Below are positions 31,091 through 34,117 of a stretch of DNA of 64,000 bases, piece after piece. The notes under the pieces were generated by a model that saw only the letters and a program-made list of their open reading frames with translations, did not search any database and was not told the DNA's origin. Position numbers and translations under genes: made by a program. Source of the stretch: an uncultured Candidatus Rokubacteria bacterium (GTDB taxonomy: Bacteria; Methylomirabilota; Methylomirabilia; Rokubacteriales; CSP1-6); assembly GCA_963771355.1 (NCBI GenBank), contig CAVYTA010000006.1, positions 1,888,001-1,952,000 on the forward strand, written 5' to 3'. Positions within the stretch are counted from its first letter, which is position 1, and each line of letters opens with the position of its first letter.

Positions 31091-31720
31091 ATGCCGTTCC
31101 CCGGCTTCATCACCGCTGACTTCAAGGTCTTCGACGTGGACGGCTTCGCGCCGCGGATGGCGGCGATCCGGAGCCGCCTCCGGCCCAAGCTCGAGGCGGC
31201 CGGCCGCGACCTCCTGCCCGACGTGACGCGCATCGGCGGGGCGGAGGCCTTTGCGCATGTGGCCAAGCACATGCGCCGCACCGTGAACCCGCCCGACGAT
31301 ACGTGGGTGGCCTTCGCCGCCGACAAGCGCGGCTACAAGAAGCACTGCCACTTCAAGGTCGCGATCTCGCGGGGGGCGGTGCGCTTCCTCTTCGAGGCCG
31401 GACCCGAGCACGCGCAGAAGAAGAAGTGGATCGCGGCCTGGAAGCGCCACGCGCCCAAGCTGGCGCCCCTGTTTCGGCGCGCCAAGGGTCTGGCCTGGTT
31501 CAAGAACGAGCACGATGAGACGCCCACCGCCTTCCTCGCCGATCTCTCCCTGGACGAGGTGACGCATCTGGTCGACGAGCTCACCCGCACGCGCAACGGC
31601 CAGCTCGTCCTGGGCCGAGTGGTCTCCGCCGAGGACGCCGCGCGCTGGAAGCCCGCCGACTACGCGCGAGCGGCGCGGGAGACGTTTCATGTCCTCGCGC
31701 CACTGTATAGACTGCGGTAG
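31091..31720 (+). CDS. DUF1054/YktB family protein
   Basis: HVAKHMRRTVNPPDDTWVAF, RGYKKHCHF. Confidence 0.85.
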   Translation: MPFPGFITADFKVFDVDGFAPRMAAIRSRLRPKLEAAGRDLLPDVTRIGGAEAFAHVAKHMRRTVNPPDDTWVAFAADKRGYKKHCHFKVAISRGAVRFLFEAGPEHAQKKKWIAAWKRHAPKLAPLFRRAKGLAWFKNEHDETPTAFLADLSLDEVTHLVDELTRTRNGQLVLGRVVSAEDAARWKPADYARAARETFHVLAPLYRLR

Positions 31721-31735
31721 GTGGGCACTCGACGC

Positions 31736-31882
31736 GGCGATTTACCATCAGCGGGGGCCTCGACATGGCCCCCGCCATGCCTTCTCTTCGCCCGAGTCCC
31801 CGGAACTGTCTGTTTTTCATCAGCGGGGGCCTAGACATGGCCCCCGCTCTCCCCCAGTCCGGGAACAACCTTCTGGGGACTC
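31736..31882. repeat. two copies of a REP-like palindrome (GCGGGGGCC-N7-GGCCCCCGC)
   Basis: Copies at 31736-31775 and 31818-31857; the second is nested in an outer inverted repeat 31794-31805/31871-31882. Confidence 0.85.
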
Positions 31883-31907
31883 TCGCATCCGGTCCGGCGC
31901 TCGCTTC

Positions 31908-32564
31908 GTGAACGCCCAGACGTGCATCTTCGACATGGATGGTGTTCTCGTCGATAGCGGGGTGTGGCATCGGGCGGCGTGGGCGGCGCTGCTGGAAGAG
32001 CTGGGCGCCGAGCCTCCGCGTCCCGACTACTGGCGCCTCACCATCGGCCGGCCCAGCGAGGAGGCCATCCCGCTCCTCCTCGGGCGCGCGGTGCCGGACC
32101 GGGAGTCGTATCGCCTCGCCCGGCGCAAGCGCGAGCTCTACGTGGGGTTCTCGCGCCAGGGTATGCGCGCCGTCGCGGGCGCGCCTACCTTCGTGGCTGA
32201 CCTCGCCCGGCGCGGCATCCCCCGCGCCGTCGGAACCTCGGCATCGAGCTGGGACGTGCACAATATCCTGGCCGGGCTCGGGCTCCGCCGGCACTTCGCG
32301 GTGGTGGTGACCGCCGACGACGTGAGCTCTGGTAAGCCCGACCCGGAAGTCTATGTCCTCGCCGCCCGGCGCCTCCATGCCGATCCCGCCGGCTGCATCG
32401 TCTTCGAGGACTCGGTGGTGGGGATTCACGCCGCCCGCGCGGCGGGCATGCGGGCCATCGGCGTGGCCACCGCCTACGACGAGGCGGAGCTGCTGGCGGC
32501 CGGCGCCGAACGGGTGGTCGACGACTTCCAGGGGCTCGCATGGGACTCGATCGCAAGCCCGTAG
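31908..32564 (+). CDS. HAD-family phosphatase (beta-PGM/CbbY-like)
   Basis: FDMDGVLVDS, GKPDP, FEDS. Confidence 0.9.
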   Translation: MNAQTCIFDMDGVLVDSGVWHRAAWAALLEELGAEPPRPDYWRLTIGRPSEEAIPLLLGRAVPDRESYRLARRKRELYVGFSRQGMRAVAGAPTFVADLARRGIPRAVGTSASSWDVHNILAGLGLRRHFAVVVTADDVSSGKPDPEVYVLAARRLHADPAGCIVFEDSVVGIHAARAAGMRAIGVATAYDEAELLAAGAERVVDDFQGLAWDSIASP

Positions 32565-33238
32565 GCGAACCGGGATTCTGGGAGGGGCTCTACGCCGAGG
32601 GCAACGACGGCTGGGAGCTGCGCGAGCCGAGTCCGGCGCTGGTCGCTTGGCTTGACGGGGGCGGGCGATTTACCATCAGCGGGGGCCTCGAAATGGCCCC
32701 CGCTCTCCCCCCATCGGCGGACGCTCGAAGAGTCCCCGCTCTCCCCCCATCGGCGGACGCTCCGCTGGTCGCGGTGCCGGGATGCGGGCGCGGGCATGAT
32801 GCGCGCCTGCTCGCGCAGCGGGGTTATCAGGTGGTGGGCTTCGACTTCGCGGAGGCCGCCGTGAAGGAGGCTCGCGCGCTCGCCGCCGCCGAGGGCAGCG
32901 CGGCGCGCTTCGAGCGGCGCGACATCTTCACGCTCGCCGCCGACTTCGCCGAGGCCTTCGACGCGGTGTGGGAGTACACGTGCTTCTGTGCCATCGACCC
33001 CGCGCGTCGGGCGGACTACGTGGAGGTGGTGCGCGCCATTCTGAAGCCGGGCGGCACCCTTCTCGGCTGCTTCTACCCGCTGCGGGAGGGCGGCGACGGC
33101 CCGCCGTACCCGGTGGCGCTGGCCGAGGTGGAGCAGCTCCTCGCGCCGGGCTTCCGCGTGGAGGAGTCGCGCGCGCCCGCCGCGTCCGTCGAGCGGCGGC
33201 ACGGGCTGGAGTGGCTGGTCCGCGCCACTCGCGTCTAG
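32540..33238 (+). CDS. thiopurine/thiol S-methyltransferase-like SAM-dependent methyltransferase with repeat-derived insert
   Basis: VPGCGRGHD, EYTCFCAIDP, GPPY. Confidence 0.88.
   Translation: MGLDRKPVGEPGFWEGLYAEGNDGWELREPSPALVAWLDGGGRFTISGGLEMAPALPPSADARRVPALPPSADAPLVAVPGCGRGHDARLLAQRGYQVVGFDFAEAAVKEARALAAAEGSAARFERRDIFTLAADFAEAFDAVWEYTCFCAIDPARRADYVEVVRAILKPGGTLLGCFYPLREGGDGPPYPVALAEVEQLLAPGFRVEESRAPAASVERRHGLEWLVRATRV
32664..32762 (+). repeat. third REP-like copy plus 29-nt tandem duplication, in frame inside the methyltransferase
   Basis: 32664-32703 matches 31736-31775 at 39/40; 32698-32726 equals 32734-32762. Confidence 0.9.
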
Positions 33239-34117
33239 CGCGCCAGCGCCACGCAGATCACGCCGGCCAGCACGAGGCTGGCGGCGGCGAGCCGCCGGCC
33301 CACCCCGCGCTCGCCGAACCAGAGCCGTCCGATGGCCACCGACAGCACGATGGAGATCTCGCGGGCGGCCACCACGTAGCCGGCCTTCGAGAGGCGAAAG
33401 GCGAAGAGGACGAGGAGATAGCTGGTGAGGTTGAGCGTCGAGGCCACCAGGATGGCGCGCCAGTTGGTCCGCCACTCGCGCGCCAGCGCGGCCCGCCGGC
33501 GCACCATGGCCGGCACGAGAAGCAGGCTCATGCCCACGCCGAGGATGGCGATGTACGGCACCGGGTGAAGCCGCGCCACTCCGGCCTTGTCCACCAGCGA
33601 GTAGGCCGGCGATGGAGAGTCCGGTGACGAGCGCCCAGCCCGTCCCCGCGCTCATCAGCCGGCGCGGGCCGGCGGCGGCGCTCCGCCCCGCCGAGTTGAG
33701 CCCCGCGGAGCTCAGATTGATGCCCACGATGCCCGCCACGACCAGCAGCACGCCCAGCGCGCCCAGCGCCGACGGCCGCTCGCCCAGGAAGAAGAATGCG
33801 GCGAACGGCACCAGCGCCACGCCCAGGCCGCGCGCAATCGGGTAGACGAGCGAGAACTCACCCGAGCCATAGGCGCGCCCCAGCAGGTAGAAGTACACCG
33901 CGTGAATGACGCTGGTGGCGGCGAGAAAGGGCCAGGCGGCGGCGGGCACGCCCTCGCGCGGCAGGAACCCCCAGCCCACGGGCAGGAGCACCAGGGTGGC
34001 CAGCGAGACGGAGGACCAGAGAAAGGCCAGCTGGTCCTGCGCCCGCTTCGTCAGCGCGTTCCAGGACGCATGGATGGCGGCCGCGGCGAGAACGAGGAGC
34101 AGGGCGTCGGTGCGCAT
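33235..34117 (-). pseudogene. EamA/DMT transporter with single frameshift near 33605 (or sequence error)
   Basis: HASWN and YPIARG in one frame; YSLVDK...AAREISI continues in another. Confidence 0.8.

Follow-up and report, generated by a model that had tools for sequence, protein, structure and literature searches.

The Rickettsia palindromic elements (RPEs) are palindromic repeats that occur in intergenic DNA as well as inside unrelated conserved proteins, to which they are fused in frame; they have no known transposase, and their effect on the host protein is apparently neutral (PMC10969869 and PMC2229807, in the portions available). How RPE-type repeats enter protein genes and persist there has been a question ever since they were first described, chiefly for want of comparisons between empty and filled sites. 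Three other classes of small repeat share part of this behaviour, as described in the available portions of the sources: CGTC-tagged REPs are short GC-rich stem-loops with an unpaired 5' tag that form head-tail dimers or clusters and include intragenic members (Di Nocera et al. 2013, PMC3733652); REPINs are vertically inherited at orthologous positions, where they are possibly overwritten by other types (REPORTH preprint, 10.1101/2024.10.14.618302); and the Correia repeat enclosed elements (CREE) of Neisseria are small repeats that invert in place (PMC10969869). Here we characterize a hairpin repeat of Candidatus Rokubacteria which, by analogy with these systems, we regard as a combination of RPE-like in-frame loops, REPIN-like positional persistence and Correia-like in-place inversion. 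Its loops offer hundreds of alleles for comparison, including filled and empty forms from a single population, either orientation and several reading frames, and such comparisons make loop neutrality, and inheritance versus reinsertion, directly testable.

The window, that is, the whole stretch of 64,000 nt analysed (contig CAVYTA010000006.1, GCA_963771355.1; host genome label G000), contains the exact core GCGGGGGCC-N7-GGCCCCCGC at 31751, 31823 and 32679 by pattern search. With up to three mismatches, five window matches were found against 1.6 expected. The features of this segment are as follows:

31091 to 31720, plus strand: DUF1054 gene, the upstream flank of the dimer (open reading frame and domain match)
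31740 to 31775, plus strand: head 1 of the intergenic dimer, left arm and hairpin core (core 31751-31775), without the C-rich tail
31776 to 31812, plus strand: spacer of the dimer (72-nt period); dimers elsewhere in the genomes of relatives have related spacers
31813 to 31869, plus strand: head 2 of the intergenic dimer (core 31823-31847), which carries the tail and lies between the DUF1054 and HAD genes
31908 to 32564, plus strand: gene of a HAD-family hydrolase, separating the intergenic dimer from the methyltransferase (domain match)
32540 to 33238, plus strand: uninterrupted gene for a 232-aa SAM methyltransferase of the TPMT family (Pfam TPMT PF05724, E 1.9e-27)
32629 to 32770, plus strand: polymorphic patch of 142 nt, where an insert-free allele from the same species has 61 different letters (an in-frame difference of 81 nt, or 27 aa)
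32672 to 32722, plus strand: 51-nt unit in frame, TISGGLEMAPALPPSAD (core 32679-32703)
32723 to 32758, plus strand: 36-nt tandem tail duplication, ARRVPALPPSAD, variable in copy number among relatives

Folding resolves a repeat unit of 51 nt into a 10-bp stem, a 7-nt loop and a C-rich tail, with stem stability z-scores of -3.4 for the unit and -5.0 for the dimer; five of its six reading frames are free of stop codons. Unit length varies from 51 to 58 nt, and the ends are conserved yet fuzzy (~32668-32726 at the TPMT copy). An earlier sequence-only reading of this DNA had placed cores at the three window positions and had found 39 of 40 nt shared between the first and third copies (31736-31775 and 32664-32703); both statements were reproduced on recomputation. 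The element it saw at 31818, taken for a 5'-shortened copy, is instead the second head, with tail, of a 72-nt-period dimer whose first head is tailless. The same dimer form is seen at other loci in relatives, and the dimer site itself (locus 9) is filled too in G002, G005, G006 and two metagenome contigs.

To follow the repeat beyond the window, we searched the host genome, in which GGGGGCC-N7-GGCCCCC has 15 matches, against 0-2 with spacers of 5, 6, 8 and 9. A profile built from these 15 core copies, with strong copies defined by E below 1e-10, returned 17 strong copies at 16 loci together with a few tail duplications. Its scores are bimodal, with almost no matches between strong copies and background, and the reversed-genome control gave one match at E 1.8. 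Twelve of the loci are intergenic and four lie in genes: the methyltransferase, an MFS transporter loop, a linker of gamma-glutamyltransferase (GGT) that immediately precedes the processing site, and a linker in a fused decarboxylase of the phosphonopyruvate type. Dispersal of the repeat beyond the local copies, on which the sequence-only reading depended, is borne out by these loci.

In the species-representative collection, the strict pattern occurs in 21 stretches, all but two titled Rokubacteria or Methylomirabilota. Each of the eight genus genomes carries 7-20 copies, and a looser core pattern matches 132 of 158 family genomes and 2 of 24 other genomes of the order (control matches, 0), with 0 to 349 copies per family genome. 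The 51-nt repeat is the genus form of a family-wide hairpin core. The 31 copies inspected in five high-copy genomes have a longer second hairpin, often just after a stop codon, and none of the 31 passed the in-gene test; one decayed copy of this longer form (core plus second hairpin) lies at G000:C6:1721510-1721534. Loop bases are conserved family-wide as GA(A/C)AT, one stem pair is compensated among the copies, and the stem base is A-T in 83 and T-A in 12 of 101 copies, the two variants alternating at four shared loci. Stem and loop positions are more than 90% conserved although synonymous divergence between congeners is 0.3-0.7, a conservation biased upward by the pattern-based selection of the copies. 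Rfam covariance models did not match the repeat, giving one chance match far below the gathering score and off the repeat, and the main hairpin was not called as an intrinsic terminator. Viral contigs gave 0 matches to the repeat, on which ground a phage origin was rejected. A literature search, covering mostly main texts outside subscription journals, returned no paper describing this repeat.

The in-gene copy in the window lies in a protein whose nearest solved relatives are thiol/halide methyltransferases. The 36-nt-period duplication described by the sequence-only reading is present at 100% identity (32698-32726 and 32734-32762, 36-nt spacing). The peptide that it placed before SAM motif I does keep the frame open, but its leading GRF belongs to the host and is found in insert-free orthologues; the element-derived part, at about 32672-32758, consists of TISGGLEMAPALPPSAD and the 12-aa duplication. 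Of 1078 TPMT homologues the best 120 were taken, and 112 of these could be anchored. Alignment to these, as that reading had proposed, separates 60 with a short loop from 45 with an element-derived loop in four frames (32, 1, 3 and 9 proteins); the other 7 have different long loops, one reading like a fifth frame. Loop-free orthologues, one point of that reading, are thus present. The peptide itself seems unimportant, since at least four reading frames of the element are found in this one loop.

Independent short-read runs contain contigs that match 32698-32762 exactly and bridge the left junction, and we consider the TPMT insert real because these runs carry it. The runs also contain a conspecific in-frame allele 27 aa shorter, with 61 letters in place of 32629-32770 that end in a GRLGPEGARV loop. 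This allele matches the insert-free protein P0020 (205 aa), which differs from the window protein at none of the first 30 and one of the last 156 residues, and whose patch begins ~40 nt before the element; the insert-free allele was present in all 4 short-read runs compared (3 studies). Elsewhere at this locus, the element runs forward in G004 and reversed in G001 over an identical 51-nt span between TTC and GAC, and protein P0054 has the exact empty junction GGRF-DPRAR. On a fast tree of 103 TPMT cores, filled and empty states are interleaved and change at least 19 times, which we read as recombination together with repeated gain or loss.

AlphaFold2 models residues 41-70 as coil with pLDDT 45-53, against mostly >85 for the core, and places the insert ahead of strand beta1 as a loop modelled with low confidence. 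This position is presumably the sheet edge opposite the SAM site, by standard Rossmann topology. Compared with six insert-bearing close relatives, the frame-broken L212 being left out, the protein has dN/dS of 0.09-0.19; judged from codon comparison, the TPMT core is under purifying selection. RNA run X15 gives contigs over parts of the gene, which cannot show transcription or its level. In one forward-insert allele (L003, G004:C73) an in-frame TGA stands where EYTC has its invariant Cys; the near-identical protein P0030 is stop-free. Downstream, the minus-strand gene from 33235 to about 34100, which we take to be an EamA-type transporter, changes frame near 33610, probably through a one-base assembly error. 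Peptides derived from the repeat and wrongly called internal starts have entered Rokubacteria annotations: of the 120 TPMT matches, 7 (P0034, P0035, P0037, P0045, P0048, P0051 and P0052) are proteins of 156-169 aa that start inside or right after the insert, and these are apparently gene-calling artefacts arising from the repeat's ATG and atypical codon usage.

Nine genes were found with in-gene copies: the TPMT-like methyltransferase, the decarboxylase linker, GGT, a SagB-family dehydrogenase, the MFS transporter, a hydantoinase/caprolactamase alpha subunit, an MsbA-like ABC linker, PrmC and NadD. They are functionally unrelated; the PrmC copy, like that of TPMT, lies directly before motif I, and the NadD copies occur in two reading frames. 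At the eight genes scored by anchors, the frame is intact in 65 of 69 distinct alleles, the four broken ones coming from G000 and G002; for MFS, two of seven alleles are frame-broken (G002, G006). With at least nine unrelated genus proteins affected, the likeness to in-frame insertion by Rickettsia palindromic elements drawn in the sequence-only reading holds well beyond the methyltransferase, and in-gene copies likely add tolerated floppy loops much as those elements do. A peptide-only search of longer proteins, too insensitive for cataloguing decorated proteins, returned one match (E 3.6) among 179 candidates. In GGT, the element is reversed and stands just before the small-subunit start (G000:C6:1442186, L287; also L060). 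The GGT frame is broken in G000 and G002, with TGA overlapping ATG, and intact in 15 other alleles; the break is likely an assembly error, and may also be a natural split of the precursor.

To compare positions between genomes, we assembled the listed genus copies, one site each from G010 and G026, and 79 metagenome loci from a scan that listed 90 stretches, dropped one duplicate metagenome locus, and clustered the sites by flank similarity. The resulting 185 sites from eight congeners and metagenomes collapse to 33 loci. Of 81 metagenome sites, 78 fall at loci known from GTDB genomes and the remaining 3 form one new locus, even though the flanks of 54 of the 81 are <95% identical to any genome site. 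Within the genus, the copies thus occupy some 33 orthologous sites, a set that is nearly closed. Copies at one locus resemble each other more than chance, with a mean of 3.78 differences over 39 nt both for same-orientation copies (null 5.15, 0/5000 permutations) and for flipped copies (null 5.09, 17/5000), and copies within a genome are slightly homogenised (4.85 against 5.08, 5/2000), all by permutation tests that ignore kinship among genomes. These comparisons suggest that most copies in the genus were inherited and that inversion, duplication, loss and exchange between strains followed. The mobile micro-element proposed from the sequence therefore survives in part: its dispersal, loop-free orthologues and in-frame loops stand, and free ongoing mobility is contradicted by the closed 33-site set and same-locus kinship.

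The element occurs in both orientations at 11 of 28 multi-member loci, comprising 7 of 9 coding and 4 of 19 intergenic loci (Fisher p 0.01, uncorrected for cluster size). Inverted segments take host flank of variable length with them (locus 13, L188 versus L142; locus 0, G000 versus G002), which fits in-place inversion and not enzyme-defined ends. Template switching is described as giving rise to short inversions with inverted repeats on either side (PMC5453318, in the available portion). At locus 0 of G000 the inverted element has such a flanking inverted-repeat pair; across flipped loci these scars are single examples and not enriched (p 0.28). Reversed copies lie in one frame at 6 of 7 flipped genes, which could mean defined ends. 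In 112 copies, neither a target-site duplication of 2-4 nt nor a palindromic target or end complementarity rose above shuffles, and no shared target motif or fixed symmetry axis was found.

Set beside the known classes, the repeat, judged by analogy, works like RPEs and intragenic REPs. Like RPEs, it is both intergenic and in-gene in G000 (12 and 4 loci) and stands in frame in nine unrelated genes with insert-free orthologues. Unlike RPEs, which measure 105-150 nt (PMC10969869/PMC2229807, as far as available), it has a unit of 51-58 nt, the sizes alone being set side by side and no sequence relation implied; it lacks their 12-bp terminal inverted repeat, with no paired ends above chance; it belongs to a free-living soil phylum and not to Rickettsia; and its loops are filled both ways and in several frames from a nearly closed site set across the genus. 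It resembles the CGTC REPs, in the available account, as a tagged GC-rich stem-loop with dimers, intragenic copies and no dedicated transposase. The tag is mostly CATC-A, and about 7 of 101 copies have the diagnostic G and read CGTC; the conserved C-rich tail sets the repeat apart from CGTC REPs, and its phylum is absent from the phyla listed for them in the available portion of PMC3733652. As a GC-rich, multicopy, mostly extragenic and often clustered stem-loop, it resembles REPs in general, which have stem-loops of 20-40 nt. Like REPINs as described in that preprint's available text, it persists at orthologous positions; unlike REPIN-RAYT systems, it has no GTAG tag, and no RAYT occurs in the genus or beside the repeat. 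Its single heads or direct dimers also differ from the inverted doublets of REPINs, and many copies are coding. CREE, on the available description, is a MITE proper, bounded by long terminal inverted repeats and duplicating its target; 112 copies of the Rokubacteria repeat showed neither feature.

The sequence-only reading saw no mobilising enzyme in the window, and we found none beyond it. Its suggestion of a RAYT/IS200 partner failed: Y1 transposase is absent from all 8 genus genomes, and although Y1_Tnp occurs in 42 of 183 genomes of the order, the core is absent from the 30 loci fetched of 50 listed matches. DUF559 was rejected, with one weak match in five genomes and no adjacent core. A small stand-alone GIY-YIG gene of G070 has a core downstream, its G000 homologue does not, and we took the association as chance in a 156-copy genome. 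The DUF559, GIY-YIG and IS110 genes of G000 have no repeat copy beside them. An IS110-family element (DEDD transposase of about 406 aa) is inserted in the C-run of the family-wide repeat at L308, L307, L334 and L312 (G027, G070, G123), with the second hairpin resuming past the IS end at L308 and L312. Its close relatives (L310, L311; L313, L314) lie within C-runs of two other palindromic repeat families, and a full core lies ~250-260 nt upstream in 3 of 19 loci examined. IS110 was rejected as mobiliser: the insertions show it exploiting the family-wide repeat as a target and give no ground for taking it to move the repeat; its insertion resembles that of REP-targeting IS elements (PMC1525189, in the available portion).

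We consider it reasonably probable (about 60%) that this is an old, non-coding REP/RPE-like hairpin repeat of one Rokubacteria family, now mostly inherited at ~33 fixed sites, locally flipped or expanded, and tolerated in loops; the genus repeat likely no longer spreads freely. We infer an amplification phase because other genera hold up to 349 copies, and this earlier, or elsewhere ongoing, amplification would be driven in trans by a putative enzyme that reads the hairpin and the GA(A/C)AT loop. Copies may be remodelled locally when replication slips or switches template on the GC-rich hairpin and C-run, filled and empty alleles would be exchanged by homologous recombination with some overwriting between copies, and selection would only remove copies that break the frame or lie outside tolerant loops and linkers, without favouring the peptide. 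Several observations count against inheritance: the 15 empty sites of G000 have no significant element remnants (p 0.06) and ancestral occupancy of all 33 is unsupported; the bimodal G000 scores are unexplained by pure neutral decay; and at least four TPMT frames and two NadD frames point to repeated independent insertion at the family level. These bear on a doubtful but serious alternative, a putative still-active enzyme that inserts or overwrites the unit site-specifically, in either orientation, at fixed hot spots including coding loops. The identical 51-nt TPMT span filled both ways in the G001/G004 clade, the empty junction of P0054, filling of this loop in separate clades and frames, the alternating stem-base variants and the near-consensus state of the copies would all suit such an enzyme; the variable inversion breakpoints, the lack of a shared target motif or duplication, the common ancestry of same-locus copies and the fruitless search for a Y1, DUF559, GIY-YIG or IS110 partner speak against it. 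An extended form, in which a RAYT-free enzyme system serves a fixed list of chromosomal addresses, a third of them protein loops or linkers, and there installs, inverts and overwrites a 51-nt hairpin cassette, with PrmC, NadD, gamma-glutamyltransferase and the TPMT-family enzyme switching loop peptides within species, we judge unlikely.

It is quite improbable that the hairpin is a maintained functional site, whether a protein-binding DNA dyad or an mRNA-stability or translation-coupling element, with coding copies kept for DNA or RNA function. The strong stem with its compensated pair, the family-wide loop bases, the scarcity of flips at intergenic relative to coding loci and the placement just after stop codons in high-copy genera agree with this; a copy number of 0 to 349 in one family, unrelated host genes, insert-free alleles segregating within species, and the Rfam and terminator results do not. 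Assembly error in metagenomes is scarcely credible as the source of the in-frame copy or the flips. G000 does have frame breaks at two other copies, those of GGT and the decarboxylase, and in the neighbouring gene, and one contig (L153) joins flanks of two loci via the repeat, but the exact short-read contigs largely refute this reading, the loop recurs in 45 of 112 homologous proteins, and flips appear in many independent assemblies. With neither a mobilising enzyme nor a function found, the repeat is a variant of known behaviour.

Two minor observations concern individual copies. The metagenome contig L153 has the SagB locus as its left flank and the TPMT locus as its right, with the repeat as the joint, and represents either an assembly chimera or a real rearrangement between copies. 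The G000 intergenic copies between co-oriented genes are mostly reversed relative to transcription (for example C4:276916, C5:650587, C7:46961 and C7:114409), and several lie within what we take to be housekeeping operons (nuoD-nuoH, sdhB-sucC, rplK-rplA, phoH-ybeY, selA-selB, ureA-ureB). Over such reversed copies the mRNA would carry, in order, a GGAG-rich stretch, the hairpin and a TGATG close upstream of the next start.
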